A DNA stretch of 28,470 bases from Candidatus Pacearchaeota archaeon. Lineage in GTDB: Archaea; Nanobdellota; Nanobdellia; Pacearchaeales; GW2011-AR1. The stretch spans positions 1 through 28,470 of the forward strand of contig RFLO01000041.1 in the NCBI GenBank assembly GCA_003693875.1, in the 5' to 3' direction. How positions within the stretch are numbered: the stretch's first letter is position 1; every line of letters starts with the position of its first letter. The notes beneath the pieces are model-generated. The model was not told the origin of the DNA. It saw nothing but the letters and a program-made list of their open reading frames with translations, and did not search any database. Position numbers and translations under genes: made by a program. Positions 1 through 21,595 of the stretch are shown here, piece after piece.

Positions 1-3000
1 CTTGAAGATATTATGAATCTTTGAAAAAGTAAGGCCTTTGTTTTCATCATCTAATTTGTTTTTTTCCTTAACAACTTCAAACTTCTGCTTTGCAAATTCG
101 CTCCTTTCGCCCGTCTTCAAAGAAAAAGTAAGATTTTCAAATACATAAAAATCCTCATTGCCACCATTATCACTAACCCTAATAATTGACCCGGATTCTG
201 GTTTTTCGTTTTTCTCACTTGCACTCCCGGAAGTAGAACTACTTGCGCTACTCCCCCCGCTCGCCTGGTTAGTTTGAGGTCCATTAGTGGCTGCTGGCCT
301 TGGACCAATCTCTCTAATCCTCGCATTCTTCTTAGCAAAAGACAAAAGCACTGCTTTGGCATAAACGCGAACCTTCAATAAAAGAAGAGATGCCTTCTCC
401 TCATTAGTACTGTCATTCGCAGCCACAATCTTCCTTAGGGCTTCATCAATATCCTGCCCCGAAACAGAAGGCTTCCCTAACAATTTATTTACCTCGCTTA
501 TGGTATTCCCAACAGAAGGGCTTATTCCCGTCTGCAAATTTTGAATGGAATCTGAGCTTATCTCCTTTAGCTTGTTAAGTGTTCCAACATAACCAGAACT
601 GCTTATTTTTTTCATAACTTCTTTGACGCTTTTCAAATCAAGAAAGCAGCGAATATTTTCCTTGCCGCAATATCCAACATCGCGCCATCGGCTGCTGTCC
701 TCCACAGAACCTTTCGTTGCACAAACTCTGACAATCCCTTTAAGATCTGCCCTTGGATTAACTGCCCCTTCTACAACCTCTTGAATATTTGGACTAATTG
801 AGGAAAGAGATGGCTTGCCATAAATGCACTCCTTTTCTGAAGTAACTTCATTTTTTGCTGCTTCGTCTGCAAGTTCCATTGAAAGTTCGTTTAGGGCAAA
901 CTCTGTTGTAACCTGTTCAAATCCGCAGTGTGGCTGTCCATCAATTTCAACGCAAAGTTCTTTGTACCCGGCAGGAGCCGTAAAGTCCAAAGTTTCTGAA
1001 GCCGTTTCCCCTCGCGGGACATAGCCTGTCTTGACCATTACCGTTGGATTTGAGACATAATACCCAGAAGTTGGCGGGCTTTGAAGATAAATTCTAAAAT
1101 TCACTCCCTTGTCCTTGCCGGCATAAATATGATAGTAAACCTTGTAAGCAGAAGTTGCCGGAAGCGTCGCTTCACTTAAAACACTCTCTGAAAAACGAGC
1201 ATAAAACTGCGTTGGAGAATCCGGTTCAAGAAGCTTGTCAATAGCTTTCGCAGAAGTTGGAATACTTGTCCCAATAAAGCTCCTGCAAAAAGTGCTCCCT
1301 GCTTCCTCAATGCTTCTCAATTTGAAAGCTCTAAACATCTCTTTTGCATAGTTGTCGCGAAAAAACTTTGCACTTTCATCAAAAGCATCAACCGCACTCT
1401 TGGCAAAAAGATATTCCCCTCCGCCACGAACACCGGCACGGCTGCCGGAAACAGATTCAAACAGTGCTGGAATAAGAAGCCGCGTCATCGGAGCTACCTG
1501 CTTCCAAAAGAACTCGCATTTGTAAACTGAAGTTATCTCATCGCAAATCCCAACATACCTTCCGCTTTTAGCATTTTCTTTTAGGCAATCACGATAACCT
1601 TTCAGGACAGAAAGGTACGCGTCAATGCCCGCGTGAATCCCGCTCAAGCAAACAGGAACATAAATCTTTTCGTTAAAATTCGGAAGGCAAAGCACAATGC
1701 TTCCAATAACCCCTGACTGGATAACGCTTGAAACAGGAAATCTTCCACCCATATCGCAACGCGAAGTTGGACAAACTACCGGATCACAGACATTAAACAG
1801 GATAAGGCATTCATCAACACTCATAAGATCCTGGCACTCAAGCCCCCCAATCTTAACAAAGGGCTTCCCAACACTAAAAGATTCTCCAAAAATCTTAACT
1901 CTGGGGCTGCCATACTGCCTTGCCGCCTCCCTCAATGCACTAAGTCCTGTTCGATAAAGAGCCTTGACCTCCCTGGGTGAAAGACCCTCACAGCCTATAA
2001 ACTGGTCAACACTACCCGCAGTATTGATATCAAAACTCTGACATATGTCATCACCTTCTCCATGCTCAATAAGGCCGTTCTTGCCAACCGAGCAAATCTT
2101 AAAATAAGTGACCTCTCCAGAAGCCCTGTAACCCTTGGGAACATTCTCCAAAATAGAACCCCCTGAACTTTCCACATAAGAATACCAAAAACCTCCATTA
2201 AACTCAAAAGGAACTATCGCGGGATAAGCCTTGTCCCTCCCGCTCTCATAATACCTAACTTCCAGATTTTCTTCTCCCCCCTTCTTAAAACTACACTTAT
2301 TTCTGTCATTCTTGCCCCCTCCATCATTATTAGAATTTTTCAAAAAAGAAGCAAGCGACTTTAGCCCTTCATTAAGCGTCTTTTCTGCGATTCTTCTCAA
2401 TTCCTGTCTTTTAATAAGTTCCTCATACAAAAGAACCGAACGAACCTGAGAAACCGTAGTAAGATTATCTTTAGAAATATTCACTCCATCTACACTCCAC
2501 GACTCATTCTTCAAGGATTCCTTAAGCTTGTTAACATACTCTTTTGTATTGATAACAGTGCCTTTATCAAAAAGCCCACCGCTTGAAACCATTCCTTGCT
2601 TTTTAAGAACCGAATCCATCTTTTGATTAACATTTTTAAGTGCTTCGGCAACTTTCTCCACATCTCTTTCAATTTCAGAAGAATGTTGCTCATAACACTT
2701 TAAAATCTCATGAGGATTCCCGCGGCTACTCTCCCTGCAAATTTCGCGATAATAATCCATAACTTTTTTCCTTGCTATTGCCTTCCCACTAAACCCGCTA
2801 AAAAAATTCTTAAGTGTCAAAACCGCAGAAGTTGCAAGGCACGCCCCCTTAAAGCCGCGAACAAGCTTTCCTATGTTTTTGTTTATCCTCTCCCACTTTT
2901 CAATAGTCCTTTCTACCTTTTCGGCTTTTTCAAGGCTCTTGTTTGGATTAAGCTTAAAGGCTCTTTTTTCAATTCCAATACTAAAAGTAAAAGGAGCCGA

Positions 3001-4653
3001 TGTCCGAGCAGAGCTTATCTTTGGAATAACCGAAACATAAGCCACTGGCTTAACACTCACATCCAAAAGCTTTATGTTATGACTTCCAAGTCTTAGAAAA
3101 CCGCCCACCTCAACCTTGCCTACAACCCCTTTATCACCCTTTGAAACCAATCTAAACTCCGCCCCACCCGGAAAAATTCTTTCAAGATAAATCTTATCGC
3201 CGCTATTCTCCCACTTTTCTCCTTCCCCCTTATTTAGTAGCTCCCCCCCGTCAACAGAAAAGTCGGCACTCTTTTCCTCTTTGCCCTTTTTCCAATCGGC
3301 AATGCCAATAAAGTGATGCTTCCCTGCAACATAAACTCCCCTATAAGCATTTGAAAAGTCATATCCTGAACGAAGAATAAGTTTTCGCAAGCGAACATCT
3401 TCGCCATACTTATCAATAAAGGTTTTCTCAAGACTTTTTGCCTCCTTGCTTCTTCCAGTTTTTAACGCAACACGAATACCCTCAAGCAAGGCTTCTTTTC
3501 CAAAAACCCTGCCCGAAAGATCCTCTTCCGTATTTGGAAAATCATTCAAAATTTCGTAAATTGTTTCATTCATTTTTGTAAAATTTTCATCATCGTTCCC
3601 GTTTCTACTATTTCTGCCATCTCCATTCTTCTGAGCAACAAGTTCAAAAGAACCAGAACCCGCGCACGATATTTTAGCAGAAACTTTTTCGCTCTTATTT
3701 CCTCTATCAGCTTCTTTTTCAATTTGGATATTTGAAACATAGCACTGCCCATTCAAAAATCGCGAACCATCACGCAACCAAGTTTCATGGCCATCAACAT
3801 CAATCAGGACAGAGTCCTCATCTGCTACAACCTTGTTTAACCTGACCTTAAAAGAAGCACGGCAGTAATAGCCGGGAAGATAAATTGATGGGCTGCTTTC
3901 TCCAACCTTTAGGTCAAACTCCCTTAAGATGCGGTCCGGTGCCTTGAAAACTGCAATCCTTGCATGGTCGCTTGAAACATCTACTGCCCTCAAAAAAGCC
4001 TTGCCATCAAAAAACTCAGAGCGCGCATACTCTCCAAGAAGCCATTGCTCATCACTTATAACTGGAAGGTAAAACTCGCTTCTTCCCGCCCCAAATGCCT
4101 CGTCTGCATCAAAATGGATAACCGCCGTAAGGTTTCCAGATATTTTTTCAGGAAGGTCCTTTTCAAGACCCCGCCTTACCACCAAAACAACATAGCCAAT
4201 ATTCTCAATCACCGGGCTTCCAGAAATCTTTCTAAAAGACCTAACAGCTGCTCGTGCGGGATGGTAACTTATTGAAACAATTCCTTTTGGTTTTTTACCC
4301 TTAAAGTAAATTGAAGTAATAGAAGATGCTCGAATCAGTGGATTTGTCTTAACTGAGTAAAGCTGGCAAAAAACAGGCACATTCTGGTCTTGAAGCAAAT
4401 CGCTCCTGACAACGCTCGGGCTACAGCCATTTGGTGGAATCATTACAACAAAATCTGTTCCGTCTTCCTTACACTGCCCGTCACGGATTTTACTAATAAT
4501 CGGCCAGTACTTTGAAACATCTCCGCTATAAAGCCTGTGAAAGCTTGGGGGGCTGTATTGCCACGAATTAACCGGCCCGTTAAATGCCTGCTGCGATAAG
4601 ACAGGCGAAGCTAAAAAAATCAATGCAAAAGTCAAAAAAATTCCTGCTTTCAT
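1..4653 (-). CDS. Giant secreted Cys-rich hypothetical protein, >1551 aa, 3'-partial (runs off window); not in ORF track
   Basis: Manual translation of the minus frame from ATG at 4653 to position 1 shows no stop. N-terminus MKAGIFLTFALIFLASPVLSQQ is a Sec-type signal peptide. About 30 Cys and several N-x-S/T sequons. The start overlaps the upstream stop (ATGA, 4650-4653). Confidence 0.93.
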   Translation of the reverse strand, partial: MKAGIFLTFALIFLASPVLSQQAFNGPVNSWQYSPPSFHRLYSGDVSKYWPIISKIRDGQCKEDGTDFVVMIPPNGCSPSVVRSDLLQDQNVPVFCQLYSVKTNPLIRASSITSIYFKGKKPKGIVSISYHPARAAVRSFRKISGSPVIENIGYVVLVVRRGLEKDLPEKISGNLTAVIHFDADEAFGAGRSEFYLPVISDEQWLLGEYARSEFFDGKAFLRAVDVSSDHARIAVFKAPDRILREFDLKVGESSPSIYLPGYYCRASFKVRLNKVVADEDSVLIDVDGHETWLRDGSRFLNGQCYVSNIQIEKEADRGNKSEKVSAKISCAGSGSFELVAQKNGDGRNSRNGNDDENFTKMNETIYEILNDFPNTEEDLSGRVFGKEALLEGIRVALKTGRSKEAKSLEKTFIDKYGEDVRLRKLILRSGYDFSNAYRGVYVAGKHHFIGIADWKKGKEEKSADFSVDGGELLNKGEGEKWENSGDKIYLERIFPGGAEFRLVSKGDKGVVGKVEVGGFLRLGSHNIKLLDVSVKPVAYVSVIPKISSARTSAPFTFSIGIEKRAFKLNPNKSLEKAEKVERTIEKWERINKNIGKLVRGFKGACLATSAVLTLKNFFSGFSGKAIARKKVMDYYREICRESSRGNPHEILKCYEQHSSEIERDVEKVAEALKNVNQKMDSVLKKQGMVSSGGLFDKGTVINTKEYVNKLKESLKNESWSVDGVNISKDNLTTVSQVRSVLLYEELIKRQELRRIAEKTLNEGLKSLASFLKNSNNDGGGKNDRNKCSFKKGGEENLEVRYYESGRDKAYPAIVPFEFNGGFWYSYVESSGGSILENVPKGYRASGEVTYFKICSVGKNGLIEHGEGDDICQSFDINTAGSVDQFIGCEGLSPREVKALYRTGLSALREAARQYGSPRVKIFGESFSVGKPFVKIGGLECQDLMSVDECLILFNVCDPVVCPTSRCDMGGRFPVSSVIQSGVIGSIVLCLPNFNEKIYVPVCLSGIHAGIDAYLSVLKGYRDCLKENAKSGRYVGICDEITSVYKCEFFWKQVAPMTRLLIPALFESVSGSRAGVRGGGEYLFAKSAVDAFDESAKFFRDNYAKEMFRAFKLRSIEEAGSTFCRSFIGTSIPTSAKAIDKLLEPDSPTQFYARFSESVLSEATLPATSAYKVYYHIYAGKDKGVNFRIYLQSPPTSGYYVSNPTVMVKTGYVPRGETASETLDFTAPAGYKELCVEIDGQPHCGFEQVTTEFALNELSMELADEAAKNEVTSEKECIYGKPSLSSISPNIQEVVEGAVNPRADLKGIVRVCATKGSVEDSSRWRDVGYCGKENIRCFLDLKSVKEVMKKISSSGYVGTLNKLKEISSDSIQNLQTGISPSVGNTISEVNKLLGKPSVSGQDIDEALRKIVAANDSTNEEKASLLLLKVRVYAKAVLLSFAKKNARIREIGPRPAATNGPQTNQASGGSSASSSTSGSASEKNEKPESGSIIRVSDNGGNEDFYVFENLTFSLKTGERSEFAKQKFEVVKEKNKLDDENKGLTFSKIHNIFK

Positions 4654-6482
4654 TCTACTCTTACAATCAAAAGCGAATCCTCCATTAGCTCATAATTTTT
4701 CTGAAGCTCATCAAGACTCTGCGGCTCGCCGAACATCGGGACACTAATCTTCAAAACATCCCCCTTGAGCTGCTCTTCTGTCAAATACTCCTTGCTCTTT
4801 CCCCCTCCAACAAGAGCCATCTCTGACTTAGTTTCAGGAATTTCAACTTCAAAACATTTTTCTCTTGTCGCACCAAAAAAGCCGGCAAGCCCATGTTCTG
4901 GAACCTCTACACAAGTCCTTTTCTTAGAACTTGGAAAAACAATTGAACTATTGCCATAAGCATAAACCGAAACATTGTAATAGCCATCTACTAATTCAAT
5001 TGAATCCTGCTCAGGGTAGGAGGCATAGGCAGAATAGCCATCTGACTCAAAATAAACAAGGGCTCTTTCAACTTCCCCGAGATCAAGCTTTAACTTATGC
5101 TTCTTGCTTAAAACCAAAATCGCATCACTTTTGTCATTTGTAGAAATTTTTTGTTTGCCTTCGGCATACCCCTGTGCATTTGCAAAAAGAAAACCGTTGA
5201 CACATTGAGGAACCTTCGCTTTTAAAACCGCCTTTCCTCCGCTAAGCTGTGTTTCTCCAAGCTCGCAGGAAAAATCTGCACACTTAAAACTAACGCTGGC
5301 TTCAACAGGATTTAATGAGAGGTCATAAGTTGAAACTTCAATCTCCTTGTTGGCATAATCGCACGCATCAGATGTGCGGTTAGTGGATACAATCCGCGAG
5401 TTGTCTGGCATATTCCCTGAAATCAAAACAGCAATAGGAAATTGGAAAAAGTCCTCACCGTCATATAGCTGAACCATCACTGGAAAGGCAACATCATAAA
5501 CGAAGTGATACGGGACAAAACAAAAGCCAAGAACCCCAAGACCCTTCTGTGGCCCAACAGGTTTTGCAACCTCATCTCCATGAATTTCAATCTTAGTCGG
5601 CCAAGAAGGATTATACATAAAATTCACAAGGTGATTAGCTTCAAAACCGGTGTCAACAACAAAGTATTTGTTTGAAGGCTTCTCATTGTAATATGTGCCC
5701 CGAACCTTGACGGCGGGGATATTTGCCGAAAGCCCCTCCGAAATATCTTTCCTTATCTTGTCAAAAGAAAAAAACTTCGGAGAACAGCTAATCTCCACGC
5801 CAGTTACCGGAGCATAAAGCCTAACAACATCAATGGCATAATTTTCAAGAAATCTCTGTTCCTTTTCTGCATTGTAAATCATCAGTGCCTCATCGTAAAG
5901 CTTTCCAAGATTGCTGTTAAAATCAACTTCGTGTTCAAGAATTGCTGTTGACTGGTTTCCCCGAAAAACCTTGAACGGTGCATCAACAAAAACCTTCACG
6001 CCATCATCATAAATATCAACCGAAACATCTCCCGAAGTTGCATAAACATCAAAACCTTCTTTTTCAAAACTTGAAAAATCGCAATCCTCAATCCGCTCCC
6101 TTATGTATTCGGCAAGCTGTTCCTCCATTTGCTCTTTTGTCGGTACCTTTTCCCGAACAAGATTATTTCCTGAAACATAAAACCAGTAGGGAACCCCCTG
6201 ACCTAAAAAATCAAGCTCTGAAGAAAATGGCATAAAAGGAGAGCCTGGTTCAAAGACTGGTTTTTCAATATAGCCCGCAGAATCCCCAAGAAGTTTTGTC
6301 CCATACCTTGCAACATCCTCAATACAGGAAAGATAAGCATCGTAAACTGGTTTAAATTCCGAAGACACGGCACTCTTCCCACTTGGCTTGACAACAAAGT
6401 AAATCGCTATTGCCCCAACAATCACTAAGGCAACAACAACAAAAATTGTAACCTGCCCCCTTTTCAAAACCAAATTGCTCAT
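4650..6482 (-). CDS. Large class III signal-peptide (prepilin-like, KRG|Q) protein, about 610 aa, with Cys-containing extracellular domains
   Basis: LKRGQVTIFVVVALVIVGAIAIYFVV fits the type IV prepilin N-terminus. TATA TTTATATA at 6511-6504 supports the ATG at 6482 (track start is GTG 6485). Confidence 0.85.
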   Translation of the reverse strand: MSNLVLKRGQVTIFVVVALVIVGAIAIYFVVKPSGKSAVSSEFKPVYDAYLSCIEDVARYGTKLLGDSAGYIEKPVFEPGSPFMPFSSELDFLGQGVPYWFYVSGNNLVREKVPTKEQMEEQLAEYIRERIEDCDFSSFEKEGFDVYATSGDVSVDIYDDGVKVFVDAPFKVFRGNQSTAILEHEVDFNSNLGKLYDEALMIYNAEKEQRFLENYAIDVVRLYAPVTGVEISCSPKFFSFDKIRKDISEGLSANIPAVKVRGTYYNEKPSNKYFVVDTGFEANHLVNFMYNPSWPTKIEIHGDEVAKPVGPQKGLGVLGFCFVPYHFVYDVAFPVMVQLYDGEDFFQFPIAVLISGNMPDNSRIVSTNRTSDACDYANKEIEVSTYDLSLNPVEASVSFKCADFSCELGETQLSGGKAVLKAKVPQCVNGFLFANAQGYAEGKQKISTNDKSDAILVLSKKHKLKLDLGEVERALVYFESDGYSAYASYPEQDSIELVDGYYNVSVYAYGNSSIVFPSSKKRTCVEVPEHGLAGFFGATREKCFEVEIPETKSEMALVGGGKSKEYLTEEQLKGDVLKISVPMFGEPQSLDELQKNYELMEDSLLIVRVE

Positions 6483-6503
6483 CACATCTTAAAATAAAAA
6501 AGA

Positions 6504-6511
6504 TATATAAA
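6504..6511 (-). promoter_or_regulatory. TATA box for the 610-aa prepilin-like/giant protein operon
   Basis: TTTATATA on the minus strand ends 22 nt before ATG 6482, the same spacing seen at many genes here. Confidence 0.6.
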
Positions 6512-6522
6512 GATTGTGAATG

Positions 6523-6609
6523 TCAACCAGAAAGAAAAAAGTAAGCAAGTATTGCTAAAGCTATTAAAATTCCAAGGATTACCAAAATCGTCATCTGCGC
6601 CTTCTTCAT
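6523..6609 (-). CDS. 28-aa micro-protein consisting only of a class III signal peptide (MKKAQMTILVILGILIALAILAYFFLSG)
   Basis: ATG at 6609, TGA at 6525-6523. KKA|Q plus a hydrophobic helix, closely resembling the N-terminus of the neighbouring 610-aa protein. Below the ORF-track size cutoff. Confidence 0.6.
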   Translation of the reverse strand: MKKAQMTILVILGILIALAILAYFFLSG

Positions 6610-6610
6610 A

Positions 6611-6681
6611 TGGCCCCACCAAGAATCGAACTTGGGCCTCATCGAAGTCAGCGATGCGTTCTACCACTAGACTATGGGGCC
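6611..6681 (-). tRNA. trnV: tRNA-Val(GAC), intronless, no encoded CCA, atypical U37
   Basis: GGCCCCA/TGGGGCC acceptor stem, D-arm GTCTAGTGGTAGAAC, anticodon arm CATCG-CTGACTT-CGATG, T-arm CCAAG-TTCGATT-CTTGG, discriminator A; 71 nt. Confidence 0.88.
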
Positions 6682-6704
6682 ACTCGAAAGAAAAACAGTC
6701 CTTG

Positions 6705-6711
6705 CTTTTAA
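6705..6711 (-). promoter_or_regulatory. TATA-like box for the tRNA gene
   Basis: TTAAAAG about 24 nt upstream of the tRNA 5' end, overlapping the stop codon of the upstream small ORF. Confidence 0.5.
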
Positions 6712-6986
6712 GTCTTGCGCCTCGCTCTTCCTCCCTTAACCTGCCCCCACCTGCCACTAATAAACTCCACATCAAAATCCTTCGGATTAAAACCACAAAG
6801 CAAGCAAATGTCAAGAAAAAGGTCCTTCGGCAAAATCCTGCTTTCAACAAAATAATTCTTAAGAGTAGAATAATTAACCCTCAAGCCAAACTGTAAAAGC
6901 CCCCTAAGTGACGGCGAGTTAAGCTTTCTTATTGCAGCCTTCAAAAATTCTCTTTGCCCTCCATTGCGAAAAAAGACTCTCTCCAT
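6708..6986 (-). CDS. Small basic helical protein (about 92 aa) ending in a WGQVKGG motif; possible DNA-binding domain
   Basis: MERVFFRNGGQREFLK...YSTLKNYFVESRILP...WGQVKGG. From memory it resembles the N-terminal module of DPANN LAGLIDADG-like proteins. Alternative start at 7004. Confidence 0.65.
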   Translation of the reverse strand: MERVFFRNGGQREFLKAAIRKLNSPSLRGLLQFGLRVNYSTLKNYFVESRILPKDLFLDICLLCGFNPKDFDVEFISGRWGQVKGGRARRKT

Positions 6987-7044
6987 AAAGAAGAGAAAAT
7001 GCATAAGTTTTTAGATTTAACTGCGGGACCATCAAACAGCAAAA

Positions 7045-7052
7045 TTTAAAAA
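7045..7052 (+). promoter_or_regulatory. TATA box for rpl44e-rps3ae-ndk operon
   Basis: TTTAAAAA preceded by an A-rich BRE-like stretch, ending 22 nt before ATG 7074. Confidence 0.6.
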
Positions 7053-7073
7053 AGAATCAGAAGATAGATTACC

Positions 7074-7376
7074 ATGAAAATCCCAAAGAAAGTAAATCGG
7101 TATTGCCCTTTTTGCAAGAAAAAAACAGAACAAAAAATAAAAGAGCCAACCAAGCAAAAAGCAAGCTCACTTAAACGCGGAGGAAAAATAAGAATCAGGC
7201 TTCGCGGCCTATGGAGGGGAATTGGAAACAAGGGAAGATACTCCCGTATGAAAAACCAACAAAAAAGGAAAAGGAAAACTACAAAAAAAACAAATCTCCT
7301 TTACACATGCACTGAGTGTGGAAAATCAAAAAACCAAAAAAAAGGAAAAAGAACCAGCAAAGTCCTAATTGAATAA
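7074..7376 (+). CDS. rpl44e: 50S ribosomal protein eL42 (L44e)
   Basis: MKIPK...RYCPFCKK...YTCTECGK zinc ribbon, highly basic, KTTKK motif. Confidence 0.93.
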   Translation: MKIPKKVNRYCPFCKKKTEQKIKEPTKQKASSLKRGGKIRIRLRGLWRGIGNKGRYSRMKNQQKRKRKTTKKTNLLYTCTECGKSKNQKKGKRTSKVLIE

Positions 7377-7921
7377 TGGCAGAAAGAAAAAAATACATAG
7401 CAGTGAAAGTTCCAATGCTAAACTCTGAACTAAGAGTCTTGGGAACCCCAAAAGAATTGCACAACAAGACAATAAAACTCGACCTGTCAAGAAAAAGTCG
7501 CGGAAAAGGCATCTTTGTTAAGTTTAGAATTTTCAATACCGAGGACGGGTTAGTTGGAATCCCAAACCGCCTTGAACTTCTAACAACCTACATCAGAAAA
7601 GCAATGAGAAAAAGAACAAGCTATGTAGAAGATTCTTTTAGAACAAAATGTGCAGATATCCGTGCAATAGTCAAGCCATTCCTCATAACAAGAAAAAAAG
7701 TTTCCCGCGCAATCCGAAAAAATCTGCGAAACACAGCAAGAGAGTTTATAACCGAATACCTAAAAGAAAAAAATTTTACAGAAGTCTTCAAGGAAGTCTT
7801 TGACGGAACGCTCCAAAAAGCAATGCTGCCAAAACTCAAAAAAGTGTATCCCTTGGCTTTTTGCGATATAAGAATTTTTGAAACAAAAGAGATTCAAAAA
7901 GCAAAAATCCAAAATGATTGA
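7376..7921 (+). CDS. rps3ae: 30S ribosomal protein eS1 (S3Ae), divergent DPANN form
   Basis: YIRKAMRKRTSYVEDSF, VKPFLITRKKVS and KLKKVYPLAFCDIR match S3Ae motifs. TAATG coupling to rpl44e. Confidence 0.85.
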   Translation: MAERKKYIAVKVPMLNSELRVLGTPKELHNKTIKLDLSRKSRGKGIFVKFRIFNTEDGLVGIPNRLELLTTYIRKAMRKRTSYVEDSFRTKCADIRAIVKPFLITRKKVSRAIRKNLRNTAREFITEYLKEKNFTEVFKEVFDGTLQKAMLPKLKKVYPLAFCDIRIFETKEIQKAKIQND

Positions 7922-8405
7922 GCAAAGCCTCGTATTGATAAAGCCCGACGGAGTTGCAAGGGGGCTCATCGGAGAGATAATAAAACGATTTGAACAGCGC
8001 GGACTAAAAATAGTTGCCCTAAAAATGTTGCACCCAACAATTGAGCAGGCAAAAAGGCACTACACAGAAGACATTGCAAAAAGGCGCGGAGAAAAAGTAA
8101 GGCAACTTCTTCTGGAATTCATAACTGAAGGCCCAATAGTTGCTATGGTAATTGAAGGAGTAAACGCAATAGAAAATGTCAGGAAAATTGTCGGAGACAC
8201 CGAATCAAAATCTGCGCTTCCCGGAACAATCCGAGGAGATTTTTCCCATGTAAGCTTTGAATACGCGGACAAAAGACAAATTCCTGTAAGAAATGTTATT
8301 CATGCCTCAAGCAGCAAAGAAGAAGCTAAAAAAGAAATAGATGTTTGGTTTTCAATTGATGAAATTTATGAATATAAAAGAGCTGACGAACAGCATGTCT
8401 TTTAA
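7914..8405 (+). CDS. ndk: Nucleoside diphosphate kinase
   Basis: LVLIKPDGVARGLIGEII...PGTIRGDF...NVIHAS (catalytic His). Likely start is Met13 of the track ORF (7914). Confidence 0.97.
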   Translation: MIEQSLVLIKPDGVARGLIGEIIKRFEQRGLKIVALKMLHPTIEQAKRHYTEDIAKRRGEKVRQLLLEFITEGPIVAMVIEGVNAIENVRKIVGDTESKSALPGTIRGDFSHVSFEYADKRQIPVRNVIHASSSKEEAKKEIDVWFSIDEIYEYKRADEQHVF

Positions 8406-8506
8406 CGTCGCTTTCCCTGGACCCATCTCTCTTGTTTTCTTTTACGTCGCGCATACCGCCAACTACGCGCTCTTCTAAATCTCTTTGGTTTGTTTTTAGC
8501 CGACAT
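8402..8506 (-). CDS. 34-aa highly basic protein (MSAKNKPKRFRRARSWRYARRKRKQERWVQGKRR); candidate small ribosomal/RNA-binding protein
   Basis: 17 of 34 residues are K/R. TTTAAAA at 8535-8529 and GAGG lie just upstream. The stop overlaps the ndk stop tail-to-tail (TTAA). Not in ORF track. Confidence 0.65.
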   Translation of the reverse strand: MSAKNKPKRFRRARSWRYARRKRKQERWVQGKRR

Positions 8507-8530
8507 AAAAAATCCTCAAAAAGACAGATT

Positions 8531-8845
8531 TTAAATCTTTCGAAAGCTAACCTTCCCAACACCGCTTCCATCAAAACCAAAATTCCAGGGAGCGTGCCCA
8601 AACTGAACCAAAACATCGCAACTGCTTTTTGGAATGTCACACGCACCAAAGCAATCACCAAGCCAAATCCTTGGCAAAATTCCTGTCTTCTCCTCAACAA
8701 ACTCCACAAAAGGAACCGCCCACACCTTCAATCCGTCCGGAAATTGAAACAAAACCTGCTTCCCCTTGAATTTTTTAAGCTTCAAAATAATCTCTTCAAG
8801 GTCAACTTCAAATCTTTTCTCCATATCAAAAACCGAGTAAGCCAT
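8531..8845 (-). CDS. Short Dph2-like (diphthamide synthesis) N-terminal domain protein, about 100 aa
   Basis: VLFQFPDGLK...GDCFGACD...DVLVQFGHA matches the Dph1/Dph2 N-terminal domain. Alternative start at 8824. Confidence 0.8.
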   Translation of the reverse strand: MAYSVFDMEKRFEVDLEEIILKLKKFKGKQVLFQFPDGLKVWAVPFVEFVEEKTGILPRIWLGDCFGACDIPKSSCDVLVQFGHAPWNFGFDGSGVGKVSFRKI

Positions 8846-8857
8846 AAAACAAAATCC

Positions 8858-9049
8858 CTAAGATGATTTTTTACACCTGCATTTACCAAGAGCCGGACAA
8901 AAGACAATGGCAACATTCAAAAGTACAAAAAGAATTGCCGAGCTAATAAAAAGATTTCCTTCAACCCTCAAAAGATACTGGATATAGTAAAGCGAAACAA
9001 AAAAAGCCACTTCTGACACAATCCATGAAAAAACCTGCCTTCCCTCCAT
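8858..9049 (-). CDS. Small membrane protein, 2 predicted TM helices, Cys-rich basic C-terminus
   Basis: 63-aa ORF with two hydrophobic segments. TTTTTAAA at 9078-9071 ends 22 nt before the ATG. Confidence 0.65.
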   Translation of the reverse strand: MEGRQVFSWIVSEVAFFVSLYYIQYLLRVEGNLFISSAILFVLLNVAIVFCPALGKCRCKKSS

Positions 9050-9070
9050 ACCTTAAAATAGGAGAATTAA

Positions 9071-9102
9071 TTTAAAAAACTTCCTACCCCAAAGCTTTTA
9101 AC
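9071..9102. promoter_or_regulatory. Divergent TATA pair (membrane protein / infB)
   Basis: Minus-strand TTTTTAAA (9078-9071) and plus-strand TTTTAAC (9096-9102), each ending 22 nt before its ATG. Confidence 0.55.
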
Positions 9103-9123
9103 TAAAACAAAATAAAAAAATCT

Positions 9124-10848
9124 ATGAAACTCAGACAGCCAATCGTAACAGTAGCAGGCCATGTTGACCATGGCAAAACTTCAATTCTTGACAAAATTAG
9201 GGAACTCTCAATTCAGGACAAGGAAGCCGGAGGGATTACGCAAAAAATTTCCTTCACAGTCCTCCCAAGAGAAATAATACAAAAAAAGGCTGGAGATTCA
9301 CTCAAAAAATTCAACATTCCAATGAATATTCCTGGCATCCTTTTCATTGATACCCCAGGCCACGCAGCATTCACAAACTTAAGAAAGAGGGGGGGCTCTC
9401 TTGCCGATATAGCAATCCTTGTAATTGACATAAACGAGGGAATAAAGCCGCAGACATCTGAAGTCCTGCAAATCTTTCGTTCAAACAAGACACCATTCAT
9501 AATAGCCTTAAACAAAATTGACAATATCCGCGGATGGAAAAAAAGTCCCTCGGGCCTTTCAATAGAATCGGTCCAAAATCAAGCAATAGCCATCCAACAG
9601 GAATTCAACGAAAAATACCTAACAATCGTCGGAGCTCTCCAATCATTTGGTTTTGATTCGGAACTCTACTTCAAAATAAAAGACTTTACAAAAAAAGTGG
9701 CTATGGTTCCTTGTTCGGCAAAAACAGGCGAGGGAATCTCTGAAATTCTCGCGGTCCTCTACGCGCTATCCCAAAAATATCTCACGGAAAAAATAAAGGT
9801 CCACTCAAATGCAAAAGGAGTAATCCTTGAAATCAAAAAAGAAAAGTCTGGAAGCTTCCTTGAATGCATACTCTACGACGGAATTCTAAGCATCAAAGAC
9901 GAGATAGCAATAGCAACACTAAAAGAGCCGATAATAACGCGAATAAGAAGTTTAAGGGAAGCCCTCCCAAGAAATTCTGGATTCGAAGCAAAGGAGAAAG
10001 TAGAAGCCGCTGCAGGCTTGCAAATTCAAATAACCTCAAAAGAAGAAGTCTTGCCAGGGATGCCCTTCCAAAAAATTGACAAAAATTTAGACGAAATAAG
10101 AGAAGAATTCAAAAAACAAATCTCAGAAGAAATAAAAACAGATGAAAGCGGAATTGTCGCAAAAGCAGAATCCCTTGGAAGTCTTGAAGCATTTCTTATT
10201 CTGCTCAGGCAAAACGGAATAAGAGTGATAAGGGCAGGAATTGGCCCAATAACCAAAAAAGACATCTATACTGCTGCAACACTCCCAGAAGAAGACCGCT
10301 TAATTGCCGCATTTAATGTAGAAATTTCTGAAGAAGCAAAAGAAGATTCTTCAAAAATAAAGATAATAAAAAATCAGGTAATCTACAAATTAATTGAAGA
10401 CATTCTGGAATGGAGGAAAAATAAGGCAAGAGAGATAGAAAAAAGAAAATTAGAAAGCCTCCCAAGCATCGCAAAAATAAGAATTCTTGACTTTGTTTTT
10501 AGAAATTCAAATCCTGCAGTATTCGGCATAAAAGTAGAGGCTGGCAAACTCAAACGAGAGGAAAAACTAATTAATTCAGAAGGCGAAAGAATAGGACACA
10601 TCAAAGAAATCCAAGAAGAAAAAACCGGGATAAAAGAAGCCGAGGCTGGAAAAGAAGTTGCAGTTTCCATGCCCGGGGTAAATTTTGAAAGAAGATTGAA
10701 AGTTGGAGAATTCCTCTACACAGACATCTCAGAATCCCAGTTTAGGAAATTTAAGGAATACAAGGATCTTTTAACATCCGAAGAAAAATCCATTCTCCAA
10801 GAAATAGCGAAAATAAAACGAAGAGAAAATCCAAGCTGGGGAATATGA
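9124..10848 (+). CDS. infB: Translation initiation factor aIF5B (IF2)
   Basis: RQPIVTVAGHVDHGKT (G1), DTPGHAAF (G3), NKID (G4), archaeal-type C-terminus. Confidence 0.98.
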   Translation: MKLRQPIVTVAGHVDHGKTSILDKIRELSIQDKEAGGITQKISFTVLPREIIQKKAGDSLKKFNIPMNIPGILFIDTPGHAAFTNLRKRGGSLADIAILVIDINEGIKPQTSEVLQIFRSNKTPFIIALNKIDNIRGWKKSPSGLSIESVQNQAIAIQQEFNEKYLTIVGALQSFGFDSELYFKIKDFTKKVAMVPCSAKTGEGISEILAVLYALSQKYLTEKIKVHSNAKGVILEIKKEKSGSFLECILYDGILSIKDEIAIATLKEPIITRIRSLREALPRNSGFEAKEKVEAAAGLQIQITSKEEVLPGMPFQKIDKNLDEIREEFKKQISEEIKTDESGIVAKAESLGSLEAFLILLRQNGIRVIRAGIGPITKKDIYTAATLPEEDRLIAAFNVEISEEAKEDSSKIKIIKNQVIYKLIEDILEWRKNKAREIEKRKLESLPSIAKIRILDFVFRNSNPAVFGIKVEAGKLKREEKLINSEGERIGHIKEIQEEKTGIKEAEAGKEVAVSMPGVNFERRLKVGEFLYTDISESQFRKFKEYKDLLTSEEKSILQEIAKIKRRENPSWGI

Positions 10849-11405
10849 GACTGCTTACAATTGACACGGAAACTACCGGACTTCAGCCAGCCATTCACCA
10901 GATACTAACTGTCGGACTTCTTGTAATAGAAGTTGAAAAAGACCACCTTAAAATGCTCGAATCTTTGCATATTCCTGTAAAACACAAGTGTTACAGAGCC
11001 GATAAAAAAGCTCTAATGGTCAATAGGATTTGTCTTGAAAGGCATCACAAAATCTCAATTGAGCCAAAAATGGCATGTGAAAAAATCTCCCGGTTCATTG
11101 AAGAAAATAATTTAGGCTCAACCCCTCTTCTCGGACACAACATAGCATTTGACCTATCATTTCTAACAGAACTATTCAGAAAAGAAAAAAAGAGATATCC
11201 TTTTGCCAAAAAATTTTATGATACAATGTTTATCTGGAATGCCCTAAAAAGACAAGGCAGGGTTCCAAGCCACCTAAACAGCACACTCCAAACAATAGCC
11301 GAATATTTCAAAATAGACTACTCAAACGCCCACGATGCCCTCTCTGACTGCGAAATAACCTCAACAGCATACCACAAGATGATTCAGTTGCAGGAAACTT
11401 TTTGA
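10845..11405 (+). CDS. DEDDh 3'-5' exonuclease (DnaQ/RNase T-like)
   Basis: IDTETTG (ExoI), GHNIAFD (ExoII), AHDALSD (ExoIII). ATGA overlap with infB. Confidence 0.92.
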   Translation: MRLLTIDTETTGLQPAIHQILTVGLLVIEVEKDHLKMLESLHIPVKHKCYRADKKALMVNRICLERHHKISIEPKMACEKISRFIEENNLGSTPLLGHNIAFDLSFLTELFRKEKKRYPFAKKFYDTMFIWNALKRQGRVPSHLNSTLQTIAEYFKIDYSNAHDALSDCEITSTAYHKMIQLQETF

Positions 11406-11878
11406 ACAGTGTATGTGCTACAAACAATTTTTTTGCCATCCCTTTCAATCTCTGGTTGAATATCTATAAGTTTCAAATCGCTATACCTACCTGGAAAAAG
11501 ATAACTAAACTTTCTTTCTTCTCCTGGAAAAAGTTTTTTAGATGGGGGCTGTCCTCCGGGCGGTAAGGGAGGTTCTACAGGTTCCTCTACACCAAACTTT
11601 GAGTTGGAGCTGTCACTTACCCTAATAACAAAACCGCTCGTATTAAATCTCCCCTTATTTTTCAAGGTAACTGAAAAACTATGAAAACTCTTGGAACACG
11701 TATAATTTGTGATAACAAGGCTTACTCCGTCTGGACACTCCAAGGGCTCCTTAACCTCAACATAAGCCTTAAGCCACTGGTAAACAATTGCTGAAAGAGA
11801 AAGAGTTATAGTTATAAGCAAAACATATGAAACCATAATACTTACTGCATACCTATTGGACTGAAACAAAACTCTCAT
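11384..11878 (-). CDS. Archaeal type IV pilin-like protein
   Basis: NRYA|VSIMVSYVLLITITLSLSAIVYQWL class III signal, followed by a Cys-containing beta domain with N-glycosylation sequons. Confidence 0.8.
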   Translation of the reverse strand: MRVLFQSNRYAVSIMVSYVLLITITLSLSAIVYQWLKAYVEVKEPLECPDGVSLVITNYTCSKSFHSFSVTLKNKGRFNTSGFVIRVSDSSNSKFGVEEPVEPPLPPGGQPPSKKLFPGEERKFSYLFPGRYSDLKLIDIQPEIERDGKKIVCSTYTVQKVSCN

Positions 11879-12446
11879 CTTTTGAATCCTTTTGAATTAT
11901 AAAAATCACTTGCCTGCTTGGTAAAATTTCAAAGGTAAAATTTTGACCGCGAACTGTAACTGTAATATTTTTAACATCCTTTCCGATATAACTGGCGTTC
12001 CAAAAATCCCCGCGCTTACCATAATCAAAGGAAACCCTTTTTGAAAGATACCCTGCCCCATTTCTAATCCTAATCGTTCCCTTTATTTTAGCCCTTCCTC
12101 CCTTTAACCATCTCCCCCCAGCATATACTCCTTCCCGACCATAATTCCTCAGATACAAAGCACTTTGATTTCCATAAACAACCATAAAGTTAGCCGACGG
12201 GTCCTTTTCCCTAATCATCTGCGAAACATTGCCAATAAAGGGTTCAAGAGCCACATTGGCTCCCAAATTTCTATATATCTCATAATCAATAACCTTGCCT
12301 GCCTCTTCTTTTACAGTAGACCCAAGATCATAAACTTCCATGGGCTCAGGATTTGCCTTTGCACTATTAATGACGCTTCCAAGACTAATTATAATTGCCG
12401 AAATTACGACGCTCGCAAAAAGAAAAAACTGTCCCCTCTTATCCAT
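11853..12446 (-). CDS. Class III signal-peptide (KRG|Q) pilin-like protein
   Basis: MDKRGQFFLFASVVISAIIISL. TTTAAAA at 12474-12468 supports the start at 12446. Five N-x-S/T sequons. Confidence 0.78.
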   Translation of the reverse strand: MDKRGQFFLFASVVISAIIISLGSVINSAKANPEPMEVYDLGSTVKEEAGKVIDYEIYRNLGANVALEPFIGNVSQMIREKDPSANFMVVYGNQSALYLRNYGREGVYAGGRWLKGGRAKIKGTIRIRNGAGYLSKRVSFDYGKRGDFWNASYIGKDVKNITVTVRGQNFTFEILPSRQVIFIIQKDSKDESFVSVQ

Positions 12447-16933: not shown

Positions 16934-17452
16934 ATGAAAAGGGGGCAGGTTTGGGTTGAAACGGTCATCTATACACTTATTGGTCTTGCGATAATTGGTA
17001 TTGTCTTGGCGCTTGTAAAACCAAAGATAGATGAAAAAAAGGACATAGCAGCAATTGAACAGGCAATAGATTCTCTAAACATCCTTGACTCAAAAATCTT
17101 TGAAATCCAAACAATTCCAGGGAATAAAAGGGTAGTTACATTGAAAATTGGAAAAGGAGATCTCCTAATAGATGCTGAAAACGACGCTATAACATGGGAG
17201 CTGGAGTCAAATACACAATATAGCGAAGTAGGGAGTATAATAAAGATAGGTGACTTAAACGTCTTAACAAAAATAGATGGTAATCTCTGGAAAGTTTACA
17301 TACAGGCAAACTACTCATCAATAAACCTAACATACAATGGAGTTGACAAAACAACCCAGGTCCTAAGCGCTGCAAAAAACCCTTACAAGATTACCCTTGA
17401 AAATGTCGGAAAACAAAATAGAAAAACGGTAATTGACATTGGAGGTTTCTGA
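16934..17452 (+). CDS. Pilin-like protein (KRG|QVWVE), first gene of the pilus assembly operon
   Basis: MKRGQVWVETVIYTLIGLAIIGIVL class III signal with Glu at +5. TATA-like AAATATATAAA at 16902-16912. Confidence 0.85.
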   Translation: MKRGQVWVETVIYTLIGLAIIGIVLALVKPKIDEKKDIAAIEQAIDSLNILDSKIFEIQTIPGNKRVVTLKIGKGDLLIDAENDAITWELESNTQYSEVGSIIKIGDLNVLTKIDGNLWKVYIQANYSSINLTYNGVDKTTQVLSAAKNPYKITLENVGKQNRKTVIDIGGF

Positions 17453-18981
17453 TGGGAGATGTAAAGATTAACCTTAATCCAAAAAAACCACAGCTAACTC
17501 CGCTGTCGGATAAAACAAAGATAAATCTTCGTTACATGGTAATTGAACCATTTGTTTCAATTCACATCCACTGGGAACCAAAATCAGGCGAACTGATCTA
17601 CGAAGTAGAAGAACCCTTAATGGATGAAGAGGATGTAAAAAACCTCGAAAGTATAGAAAATTCTATGAGAGAAATCGTAAGCATCAACATGCTCCAGGAA
17701 AAAAGAACAATAGAAAGCCTCTTAGATTATGTTGAAAAAACCGCAAAACTCATCATATCAGAATTAGGATTAGAGATTGAAGAAGAAAAATTCCCAAAAA
17801 TAATTTACTATCTTTATCGAGACTTCATAGGCTTAAACGAAATAGAACCAATGATGCAGGACTGCTTCATAGAAGACATTGAATGCAACGGCGTAGGGGA
17901 GCCAATTTACATTGTCCACAGAATCTTCAGAAACCTGAAAACAAATGTAAAATTTACTTCAATAGAATCCCTTTCAAGCTTTGTTGAAAAAATGGCTCAA
18001 AAGGCAGGACGCTATATTTCCTATGCAAGTCCAATTCTCGATGGCAGTCTGCCAGATGGCTCGCGTGTAAACGCAACATATACAAAAGATATAACTTCTA
18101 AGGGCCCAACATTCACAATAAGAAAATTTACAAAAACACCTTGGACACCTACGCAATTGCTCGGTTTCCGCGAACTCTCCCCGGAAATGCTTGCTTATTT
18201 CTGGATTCTCTTGGAATATCAGTCCAACATAATGATTATCGGTGGGACAGCTTCTGGAAAAACCACGCTCTTAAACGCAATTGCTTTCTTCATACCTCCT
18301 GAAAAAAGAGTAGTTTCAATTGAAGACACAAGAGAACTAAACTTGCCAAGAGAAAACTGGCTACCCTCCGTAGTTCGCACAGGGCTAACATCTACGGGCG
18401 TTGGTGAAGTAGACATGTTTAGCTTGCTCCGCGGTTCATTCCGCCAAAATCCAGACTATGTAATCGTTGGAGAAGTTAGAGGAAAAGAAGCCTCTGTTCT
18501 CTTCCAGGGAATGGCATCCGGGCACGCATCAATTTCAACTATGCACGCAGATTCTGTTGAAGCTGTAATAAGAAGACTCGAAACGCCTCCAATAAATTTA
18601 AGCCCGATGCTCGTAAATAGTCTCGACGCTGTTGCAATAATGGCTCACGCAATAGTCAAAGGACATGAAACAAGACGCTTAAGGGAAATATCTGAAGTAG
18701 TCCAAATACTGCCCGACGGGACAGCGACAACAAACACTCCTTTTATCTGGGACCCTGCAACAGACACGTTCAGATTTCAGGCAAAAAGCGCTGTTTTCAC
18801 AAAAATCTCAAGAAAATATGGGATTAATCTGAGAAGTCTTGAAGACGAATTCCAAAAAAGAGCAAAATACCTGAGAGCTCTCTTCAGATACAAGATACTA
18901 AGTTACGAGACAGTCCAAAAATACATAAATGCCTACCAAAAAAATCCCGTTGGCATGCTTAAAAAATTCGGCATATACTAA
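17452..18981 (+). CDS. Type IV pilus/T2SS assembly ATPase (VirB11/TadA/FlaI family)
   Basis: IEDIECNG, LPDGSRV, GPTFTIRKF, Walker A GGTASGKTT, SIEDTREL, Walker B VIVGEVRG, STMHA. Confidence 0.96.
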   Translation: MGDVKINLNPKKPQLTPLSDKTKINLRYMVIEPFVSIHIHWEPKSGELIYEVEEPLMDEEDVKNLESIENSMREIVSINMLQEKRTIESLLDYVEKTAKLIISELGLEIEEEKFPKIIYYLYRDFIGLNEIEPMMQDCFIEDIECNGVGEPIYIVHRIFRNLKTNVKFTSIESLSSFVEKMAQKAGRYISYASPILDGSLPDGSRVNATYTKDITSKGPTFTIRKFTKTPWTPTQLLGFRELSPEMLAYFWILLEYQSNIMIIGGTASGKTTLLNAIAFFIPPEKRVVSIEDTRELNLPRENWLPSVVRTGLTSTGVGEVDMFSLLRGSFRQNPDYVIVGEVRGKEASVLFQGMASGHASISTMHADSVEAVIRRLETPPINLSPMLVNSLDAVAIMAHAIVKGHETRRLREISEVVQILPDGTATTNTPFIWDPATDTFRFQAKSAVFTKISRKYGINLRSLEDEFQKRAKYLRALFRYKILSYETVQKYINAYQKNPVGMLKKFGIY

Positions 18982-20348
18982 TGGCGAATCTTCATATAGG
19001 ATTCCCTTATCCTTTCCCTTTCAGCTTCTACAAGGCGCTCAACCTCTTCGTAATCTGAACCAACAGCAATAATTCTTGCAAGATCATGCGGCACATCAAA
19101 GCCTGGAAGAAAAGTTCCCCTTTCTGGAAAATTCAAAACAGAACTACGGGCTCCTCTGCCATCAAAAATAGACCTATCATCGTAGATGGGGTCAATATCT
19201 TTTGTAATCTTGGCCCTTCCATAGGTCTTAAAAATCCTCATAGCCCAACAGATATTCTTATCAGGCTCCCATAAATCCTCCTCGCCAATCTCCATGCCAA
19301 GACTAGCATAAAGCTCCATTTCAGAAATTGAGAGTCTATTAGATGGTCTGTTAGCCTCAAGACTTGCAACAAGAATTGATGTTGACCGATTTTTTCGTGC
19401 ATTAATCTCACTAAAAAGAACCCTTCCGTCCTCTGTTACAATCCAATCAAAGCCACAAAAACCAACATAGCCCTCCTTTCGCATAACCTCTGCAAGTTTA
19501 ATGCTTGCCTTTCTTATCTCCTCCTTTGAACGAGAATCAATTCTTGAAGGAAAAATATTTCCAAAATAATTGACATCTCTTACAATTATCTGGTCACTAA
19601 GTCCGAGATAATAAACTCTATCCCTTGAAATCAACACCTGTGAATTGGGTGAAGCAATTTTTCTTTCCCAAGCAGTCATCAAAAAAGGAGGTGAAGCTTC
19701 AAAATCGGAAATCTCCTCGAGATTCCTAAGATGTTTGGCAGACCTCCCACCGGCACCGCGAACAGCAGTCATAAACACCCCGTCTTCCGAATTAGAAAAA
19801 ACATTCCTAAAATTATCCATTGCCTCTTCAAAGGAATTCGCAACAACTCCGTAAGGCACACCAATCCCAAGTTCCCTTGCCAAATTATATGAAAAAATCT
19901 TGTTTGAATACTTTCGTGCAAGATTCCCATCTGCCCCAAGAACAAAAAACCCGAGTTCGCGAAGCTTCTCTATCGTAGGAGTCGTAGAATAGGAATTAAA
20001 AACTATCTTCCTGCCGTCACGAATGTCTTCAAGCTTACGGCTAACCTCCCGTTTAAAACTTTCCGCAGAATCTTTCCATTTAAAGTCTATCTTTTCTCCA
20101 CGCAACGGACAATCACCCCCTGACTCAACAACCAACCGATGCAAACAGCCTTCGCTTAAGGGAAGACTCATACGGCTCCGAGTAAAACCACCATAAGCAA
20201 CCTCAACCCTTTTAAGAGACCTATCTGCATAATTCCCCCCATTAACTGTAACAATTAAATCTGGAAAGCCAATGTCGCAGGTAAGGCTGCCTATATGGGT
20301 TGGATCCTTTCCCATCGCAATAAGGCAGTATTCACTTTCAAGGGACAT
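18978..20348 (-). CDS. ATP-grasp ligase, PGM1/pre-ATP-grasp peptide-ligase-like
   Basis: NKIFSYNLARELGIGVP, GAGGRS loop, SPNSQ...DQ...YFGNIFPS, GYVGFCGFD, EINAR. Confidence 0.8.
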   Translation of the reverse strand: MSLESEYCLIAMGKDPTHIGSLTCDIGFPDLIVTVNGGNYADRSLKRVEVAYGGFTRSRMSLPLSEGCLHRLVVESGGDCPLRGEKIDFKWKDSAESFKREVSRKLEDIRDGRKIVFNSYSTTPTIEKLRELGFFVLGADGNLARKYSNKIFSYNLARELGIGVPYGVVANSFEEAMDNFRNVFSNSEDGVFMTAVRGAGGRSAKHLRNLEEISDFEASPPFLMTAWERKIASPNSQVLISRDRVYYLGLSDQIIVRDVNYFGNIFPSRIDSRSKEEIRKASIKLAEVMRKEGYVGFCGFDWIVTEDGRVLFSEINARKNRSTSILVASLEANRPSNRLSISEMELYASLGMEIGEEDLWEPDKNICWAMRIFKTYGRAKITKDIDPIYDDRSIFDGRGARSSVLNFPERGTFLPGFDVPHDLARIIAVGSDYEEVERLVEAERERIRESYMKIRH

Positions 20349-20360
20349 CGCAGTAAAAAG

Positions 20361-20378
20361 ATTTTTAAACTTAAAAAT
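20361..20378. promoter_or_regulatory. Compact bidirectional promoter / inverted repeat ATTTTTAA-AC-TTAAAAAT
   Basis: Plus-strand TTTTTAAA (20362-20369) and minus-strand TTTTTAAG (20377-20370) each end 22 nt before ATG 20391 and 20348. Confidence 0.7.
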
Positions 20379-20390
20379 TTTTCCGAAAAA

Positions 20391-21386: not shown

Positions 21387-21398
21387 ATTTAAATCCTC
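21376..21398 (+). terminator. Inverted repeat spanning the ATP-grasp stop codon (possible terminator hairpin)
   Basis: GAGGATT-(9 nt)-AATCCTC. Confidence 0.25.
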
Positions 21399-21431
21399 AA
21401 CATTAATAAATGCCACTCACCTCTTTTTTTA

Positions 21432-21593: not shown

Positions 21594-21595
21594 AA

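Follow-up and report, generated by a model that had tools for sequence, protein, structure and literature searches.

In the tip complexes of bacterial type IV pili, large non-pilin proteins such as PilY1/PilC are encoded beside prepilin-type proteins and are thought to be displayed for adhesion by these minor pilins. In the bindosome of Sulfolobus, surface proteins with class III signal peptides are not filament subunits, and the proteins anchored in this way are solute-binding proteins. Within the DPANN archaea, the SPEARE proteins of Nanohaloarchaeota are surface giants with protease, adhesion and restriction-endonuclease-like domains, for which a role in host interaction has been proposed. 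Of the Pacearchaeota and Woesearchaeota, we know of no cultured representative. Here we report on a gene pair of a Candidatus Pacearchaeota archaeon (assembly GCA_003693875.1; 516 kb in 47 contigs, 70% complete), which resides in a stretch of 28,470 nucleotides starting with base 1 of contig RFLO01000041.1 (C14) and hereafter called the window. The pair consists of a gene for a giant secreted protein (the giant) and, directly upstream, a gene for a protein of 610 amino acids (aa) with a prepilin-type N-terminus (the partner). Chances are about even, in our estimation, that the two build a pilin-anchored host-contact apparatus, a complex at the cell surface.

The giant resembles PilY1/PilC in that it is a large non-pilin protein encoded beside a prepilin-type protein, but neither sequence nor fold similarity to them was found, the pair lies outside the pilus gene cluster, and the partner with its 610 aa is far above the size of a minor pilin. 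The PilY1 beta-propeller gave no Pfam match and no such fold occurred among the matches obtained with the whole multi-domain models, in which a single domain may be overlooked. With the Sulfolobus bindosome the pair may have in common that a class III signal holds a large extracellular protein at the surface without a long fibre. Here, however, the protein thus anchored cannot be placed in any known family, and another protein, the giant, is coupled to it. The SPEARE proteins come from another lineage and contain other domains. Rhs/CdiA-type toxins and phage tape-measure or tail proteins likewise possess a long conserved N-terminal body and an exchangeable C-terminal module, sometimes a peptidoglycan hydrolase, yet there is no homology to them, the only Rhs-type shape match stayed at noise level (template modelling (TM) score of 0.22), and the giant gene is part of the chromosomal core, in single copy. 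Downstream of it, no gene resembling an immunity gene was noticed. A phage or tape-measure origin of the giant was rejected after PHROGs and fold searches.

Castelle et al. (2021; PMC8204110) suggested that large lineage-specific proteins of this kind serve to bind or degrade cell walls, and their proposal of murein degradation was repeated in PMC10936187. The giant family is probably identical with the "large murein-transglycosylase proteins" (fam00969) of Castelle et al., for which Rinke (2013) and Castelle (2015) are cited in PMC8204110 as earlier sources. This assignment was made by description: the lineages are the same, fam00969 proteins fall into the same size class of up to about 3000 aa and are predicted to be extracellular, and some homologues of the giant carry an SLT domain and are named accordingly in NCBI. 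Neither PMC8204110 nor the other papers that were searched describe the conserved body of the giant, the coupled pilin-like partner or the polymorphism of the tail. PilY-like adhesins have been mentioned in archaeal type IV filament clusters (PMC13705601).

The two genes are coupled by a stop/start overlap (Table 1), which had already been read from the letters of the window in an earlier note on this DNA, made without database searches. The same 4-bp overlap was found in the relatives L002-L005, L024 and L026, and in two relatives, for which the genetic context was available, a gene of 615-616 aa lies immediately before the giant gene and overlaps it by 4 bp. All 27 genomes of the same order that gave a match to the giant's most conserved part (residues 800-1350, here called the body) contained a partner homologue upstream of it on the same contig and strand, and the distances of 2.7-3.6 kb between the two were, by comparison of coordinates, those predicted by direct adjacency. 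Other genomes having both matches mostly showed the same adjacency; in the few exceptions the matches were on different contigs, twice with the partner gene at a contig edge. Even in four distant genomes the arrangement recurs, a gene of 516-721 aa standing before that of a giant of 1002-2117 aa with an overlap of 4-8 bp or a gap of 40 nt, and two of the four upstream genes disclosed a K-[KR]-G-Q-V-T N-terminus at the printed start. These distant giants are recognisable at residues about 956-1243 only, and at least two of them begin with a different domain, which is apparently fibronectin-type-III-like.

Homologues of the giant are numerous. A word-indexed search yielded more than 260 giant-like proteins of 1560-2650 aa with E values down to 0, and those bearing a name were Candidatus Pacearchaeota, Nanoarchaeota or archaeon metagenome-assembled genome proteins, in agreement with the DPANN lineage suggested before. 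BLAST homology spans residues 24 to about 1500. A Cys-dense module (residues 935-1255) is the sole part of the body that was found by BLASTP or tblastn in the most distant relatives. Among 1.84 billion representatives, its profile matched 1473 clusters (50% identity), including 965 with E <= 1e-30. Residues 800-1350 were matched in 100 of 400 high-quality genomes sampled from the phylum, almost always in single copy and within open frames of 1100-3200 aa. The own family of the archaeon was represented by 25 of 27 genomes, three other families by 10/10, 12/12 and 14/15. With the module profile (alignment A5), which included four distant members, 229 of the 400 genomes, or 230 of 401 in all, were matched. 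All giant matches fell into one class of this sample, and synteny and coupling of the pair are strongly conserved. On this genomic evidence, giant and partner are a two-gene unit common to many DPANN archaea and a core feature of those of the Pacearchaeota/Woesearchaeota type. The giant as an orphan gene was dismissed in view of the homologues and clusters counted above.

We also asked how the giant gene continues beyond the window. The previously described uninterrupted minus-strand frame of at least 1551 codons was confirmed, with an ATG start and without a stop before the window edge. Its description as unannotated proved to be an artefact of the first-stage track of open reading frames (ORFs), as the identical partial protein, letter for letter, is present in public protein collections. 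For the extension of the contig, recommended in the earlier note, contig C44 is the probable continuation: its end and the start of C14 have 19 exact bases in common, which is the sole such overlap among all contig ends. Of the frames running inward from contig ends, the one on C44 opens with the last six residues of the giant's frame in the window. Across the join 96 further in-frame codons lead to a stop, giving a protein of 1647 aa and about 182 kDa. Beyond this stop, C44 contains two bPH_2 genes and genes for aIF2-alpha, UDG, TFIIB and SRP54; in relatives, TFIIB resides downstream of the giant and SRP54 close by in one of them. The opposite flank of the pair in the window harbors L44e, S3Ae and NDK, as it does in the relatives. 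Thus, we consider the join of C44 and C14, and with it the end of the giant at 1647 aa, probable in view of the exact overlap, the in-frame continuation and the matching synteny (TFIIB, SRP54). In the sole public DNA run that contains the window, a hot springs metagenome, the Logan contigs likewise break off where the window begins and leave the join unbridged. The assembly and these independent contigs of the same run break at one place (window positions 1-20 and the end of C44), which lies inside the hypervariable tail, and the shared break point may be caused by strain-level variation or a repeat in the tail. As for the flank, two adjoining membrane proteins with bacterial PH (bPH_2) domains are encoded just 3' of the giant's probable stop (contig C44, L006, positions 10449-11457). 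The giant family is also present in a hot-spring metagenome.

The N-terminus of the giant contains one Lys followed by a hydrophobic stretch of 19 residues, whose Kyte-Doolittle value of 1.93 is the maximum of the protein. A hydrophobic segment of the same kind was found in 114 of 119 homologues, in line with the signal peptide noted earlier, while a C-terminal hydrophobic segment was present in none of 120. As predicted from these termini, the giants are secreted and carry no anchor themselves. An alignment of 120 sequences revealed conserved blocks at residues 50-300, 550-650 and 800-1350 and no conservation after about residue 1450. The 1551 codons specify 30 Cys, exactly the number estimated by hand before. 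Cys richness as such turned out to be modest (1.9% versus 1.2% for the long ORFs of the genome), and what distinguishes the protein is rather the conservation of these residues, 28 of the 30 being conserved to at least 94% and 19 being invariant, and a local cluster of ten Cys within residues 940-1046. The cluster lies within a stretch that has four moderately hydrophobic 19-mers at 943-961, 972-990, 999-1017 and 1053-1071 (Kyte-Doolittle 0.9-1.8). The many sequons reported for the giant did not withstand counting, as its 10 N-x-S/T sites compare with 9.8 +/- 2.8 in shuffles; an unusual glycosylation was rejected for the same reason.

AlphaFold2 models were built from alignments of 60 sequences. 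The model of residues 22-790 (m69ac53cf5b19) had a mean predicted local distance difference test (pLDDT) value of 80.5 and exhibited long helices and a hairpin region of TPR-like appearance besides domains rich in beta structure. The model of residues 790-1450 (m1fec7a19d623) was mixed, with a mean pLDDT of 73; its flanking beta domains were confident, whereas the Cys-dense region appeared as four long helices with a pLDDT of about 40-70. Between residues 775 and 800 (window positions about 2256-2330), the giant lacks an insert of ~100-125 aa that is carried by nearly all of the 120 homologues; three others lack it as well.

Table 1. Positions of the gene pair, its parts and further features in the window, unless another contig is given.
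Feature	Position	Strand	Description and basis
Giant secreted protein gene	1..4653	-	1551 codons in the window, ATG start at 4653, 3'-open at the window edge
Sec-type signal peptide (residues 1-22)	4588..4653	-	Predicted from hydrophobicity; N-terminal segment in 114/119 homologues
Conserved N-terminal beta-rich domain(s) (residues 23-345)	3619..4587	-	6 conserved Cys; conservation profile; AlphaFold2 pLDDT mostly >85; no fold match
Middle region (residues 355-775)	2329..3591	-	TPR-like helical hairpin stretch, beta domain, long helices; less conserved except residues 551-650
Most conserved body (residues 800-1350)	604..2256	-	About 50% identity across the family; alignment, BLAST, AlphaFold2 model
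Cys-dense, partly hydrophobic helical module (residues 935-1255)	889..1851	-	Alignment, profile, helices of low pLDDT
Start of hypervariable C-terminal tail (residues 1446-1551)	1..318	-	Ser/Gly-rich linker, then small relative-less domain; no Pfam or BLAST match
ATGA stop/start overlap (translational coupling)	4650..4653	-	ATG of the giant overlaps TGA of the partner
Partner (610 aa)	4650..6482	-	Class III (prepilin-type) N-terminus, 10 invariant Cys, beta-sandwich C-terminal part; sequence, alignment, ESM Atlas model
Class-III-like signal/anchor of the partner	6393..6482	-	Short charged N-terminus, KRG|Q, hydrophobic helix; sequence, predicted
T2SSE-type ATPase	17452-18981		Candidate assembly ATPase of type IV filament machinery
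T2SSF-type platform proteins	21596-22819 and 22819-23643		Candidate platform proteins of type IV filament machinery
Two pairs of class-III-signal protein and overlapping Cys-rich secreted protein	Contig C46 (L028) 5918-12405		248 aa + 1101 aa and 259 aa + 566 aa

While the body is conserved, the tail, i.e. everything that follows it, is hypervariable. BLAST detected tail similarity in 1% of the pairs with 60-70% body identity and in 13% of those with 70-80%, and 49 of 118 tails had no relative in the set. The tail of the giant studied here had no BLAST relative among 120 homologues. When 119 homologue tails were scanned against Pfam, SLT was matched eight times, Hydrolase_2 twice, and Amidase_3, Peptidase_M15_4, Glucosaminidase, SLT_4, LysM, DUF1615, TSP_3 and DUF3781 once each. 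Seven of these families (SLT, SLT_4, Hydrolase_2, Amidase_3, Peptidase_M15_4, Glucosaminidase and LysM) are peptidoglycan hydrolase or binding families, which occur in at most 17 of the 119 tails; peptidoglycan hydrolases are found in the tails of about 13% of the homologues. The SLT (murein-type lytic transglycosylase) domain is confined to eight tails and missing from this giant; it is thus an accessory and not a defining part of the giant family, and the present protein demonstrates that a hydrolase is dispensable. As judged from the sequences, the pattern is that of a conserved carrier with an exchangeable or fast-diversifying outward module. The bacterial cell-wall hydrolases in some of the tails indicate that the outside target is the envelope of another cell, at least in those lineages.

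The same tails, together with the lack of an anchor in any homologue, would also suit a free lytic or scavenging exoprotein that degrades bacterial walls or other polymers, with the upstream protein as a helper for its secretion or folding, and murein degradation has been suggested in print (PMC8204110, PMC10936187). We regard this explanation as improbable. Most tails, including the one in question, lack a recognisable enzyme, a conserved non-enzymatic body of ~1350 aa would be an expensive part of a diffusible enzyme for a genome of 0.5 Mb, and retention of the giant is suggested by its strict coupling, throughout the class, to a partner held in the membrane.

Searches for known families and folds remained without success. 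Pfam, NCBIfam and PHROGs returned noise-level matches only for both the giant and the partner, so that the absence of a known domain, as first perceived, was corroborated. Single sequences and the profiles A2, A3 and A4 gave nothing in the PDB, or TPR-like noise at an E value of 0.027, and a search of the ESM Atlas by features gave no usable match for the giant. With the two AlphaFold2 models, Foldseek (against PDB, AFDB clusters and BFVD), VIA-align wide and the ESM Atlas by shape revealed only generic beta-sandwich, TPR-like and three-helix-bundle structures, the best values being a TM score by query of at most 0.26 and a Z score of at most 9 on short helical stretches. The fold search advised in the earlier note, carried out with these models, disclosed no known fold and no confident match to an enzyme or S-layer protein. 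Since the queries were large multi-domain models (661 and 769 residues), the missing fold matches do not prove new folds.

One of the shape matches, to an archaeal CARDB/S-layer cluster (TM 0.24), bears on the question whether giant and partner might form a general envelope structure of every cell, for example an S-layer, sheath or scaffold, with no specific role in host contact. A weak likeness of this kind would fit such a structure, as would a giant that is nearly universal and single-copy in small genomes, a body of about 50% identity with invariant disulfides, and conserved housekeeping surroundings (L44e, S3Ae, NDK, TFIIB). Nevertheless, we consider a general envelope structure rather unlikely, given that no S-layer family of Pfam or NCBIfam was matched by the giant and that a hypervariable tail, which in some relatives contains cell-wall hydrolases, is awkward for a lattice protein. 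Moreover, a separate protein whose N-terminus is surface-layer-like in the manner typical of archaea is encoded on contig C46, an argument whose weak point is that this protein has no family match itself.

The partner comprises 610 aa when translated from ATG and 611 aa from a GTG one codon upstream. Its classification as a class III signal-peptide protein was corroborated by the N-terminal K-R-G-Q, which is followed by about 22 hydrophobic residues, and by the motif [KR][GA]Q-V-T-I-F (RGQ, KGQ, KAQ or RAQ), which is kept in 100 of 120 homologues. The ESM Atlas model of the partner (predicted TM score 0.61) has structural neighbours in DPANN clusters without names (TM up to 0.86 by hit, residues 5-453), while its C-terminal part shows a weaker likeness to carboxypeptidase-regulatory-like beta-sandwich proteins. 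The partner family is broader than that of the giant, with 1-5 matches each in 336 of the 400 genomes and more than 1300 homologous database proteins of nearly constant length.

In the host-contact apparatus that we propose, the partner would leave the cell by export and be treated as a prepilin. The hydrophobic helix at its N-terminus would keep it in the membrane or make it part of a short type-IV-pilus-like fibre, for whose assembly the window provides ATPase and platform genes. The giant would be exported by Sec and stabilised by about 14 disulfides. As it has no anchor of its own, we propose that it is held at the surface by the partner. The conserved body would serve as a scaffold or working part, and the hypervariable C-terminal tail would meet the partner cell, with a cell-wall hydrolase in about one relative in eight and a small domain here. 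A pilus tip, adhesin or host-attachment module had been envisaged in the earlier note. Of this suggestion, host contact is made plausible by the peptidoglycan hydrolases in the homologue tails, while an adhesin or hydrolase domain was not recognised in this giant. The pilus tip adhesin is therefore only one geometry among several that are conceivable, another being a bindosome-like anchor proximal to the membrane.

Several points weigh against this proposal. Housekeeping genes separate the pair from the pilus machinery genes, which are 11-19 kb away and, in two relatives, absent from the flanks of up to 10 kb; this indicates that the pair does not belong to a pilus operon. Pfam detected no recognisable domain in this giant (residues 1-1551 and the continuation on C44), and most homologue tails likewise have none. 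A body of about 50% identity is unusual for host-facing adhesins and suits a structural or enzymatic role, too. Peptidase_A24, the class III signal peptidase, was not found in the assembled 70% of the genome. Among the public runs, no RNA run is listed as containing the window. Of 30 genomes of the same family, 28 have Peptidase_A24, by which prepilin-type processing of the partner is possible in the lineage, and the missing gene probably lies in the unassembled part of this genome. A complex prediction for residues 800-1350 of the giant and 35-455 of the partner gave a score of 0.00, below the mark and with controls not run, and counts neither for nor against binding of the two proteins.

The pair occupies about 1.3% of the assembled genome. 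Being single-copy, nearly universal in the families with the smallest genomes, extracellular and fast-changing at its outward end, it offers a concrete handle on host attachment, one of few as to how Pacearchaeota and Woesearchaeota hold their host. The pilin-like partner would tie the giant to type IV filament machinery. The type of tail may predict the kind of host, a peptidoglycan hydrolase implying a bacterium, and antibodies, pull-downs and cryo-electron tomography could be directed at the conserved body.

A different role of the body might lie in the four long, partly hydrophobic helices of the Cys-dense module (residues about 940-1110), the one part of the giant that is conserved throughout the class. 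These helices might be membrane-active, although we think this doubtful. The partner would then present the giant, and once the swappable tail has breached or recognised the wall, the giant would enter the envelope of the host and create a pore there or a bridge between the cells. If true, the pair would penetrate other cells upon contact, as a device with no relation to any known machinery for secretion or fusion.

Type IV filament machinery is encoded in the window at positions 17452-26094, where two ATP-grasp genes interrupt the series of one T2SSE and two T2SSF genes and a DUF87/HerA-like ATPase gene is located at 24793-26094. The T2SSE and T2SSF products are candidates for the assembly machinery of pilin-like proteins, without linkage to the pair in relatives. 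The DUF87/HerA-like ATPase, which gave weak TrwB/FtsK matches, the neighbouring pilus genes and the SLT domains of some homologues together recall VirB1-type lytic transglycosylases, so that the pair could be an accessory of DNA transfer or uptake, acting with the pilus and the HerA/FtsK-like ATPase. We judge this highly improbable: no homology to any component of a type IV secretion system was found, the ATPase is 20 kb away and unlinked to the pair in relatives, and the pair resides in a chromosomal housekeeping context and not on a mobile element.

The design of the pair is repeated on contig C46. The N-terminal part of the partner has two shorter paralogues there, each with a K-R-G/A-Q-type start and each joined to a Cys-rich secreted protein (Table 1), which amounts to three pairs of a class-III-signal protein and a coupled Cys-rich secreted protein in one 0.5-Mb genome. 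The two Cys-rich proteins of C46 (1101 and 566 aa) are 34% identical to each other, and neither BLASTP nor hhalign detected similarity of the giant to them. Downstream of the pairs lie a gene for a 680-aa protein, which is related to the C-terminal half of that of 1101 aa, and small pilin-like genes (162, 165 and 160 aa). The surface-layer candidate mentioned above is encoded on the same contig (C46, L028, positions 17647-19248, plus strand, 3'-open); the protein of >534 aa starts with a segment resembling a signal anchor, and its Thr/Ser-rich sequence is of the beta type.

Upstream of the partner gene, a 28-codon ORF is located between this gene and tRNA-Val(GAC) (6523-6609 and 6610-6682, both on the minus strand). 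It encodes only a K-K-A-Q plus hydrophobic-helix peptide resembling the N-terminus of the partner; either a 5' end was once duplicated and left this remnant, or the ORF may specify a genuine mini-protein. Upstream of the tRNA and on the same strand as the pair, a 98-aa ORF without a Pfam match extends over positions 6708-7004 of the minus strand.

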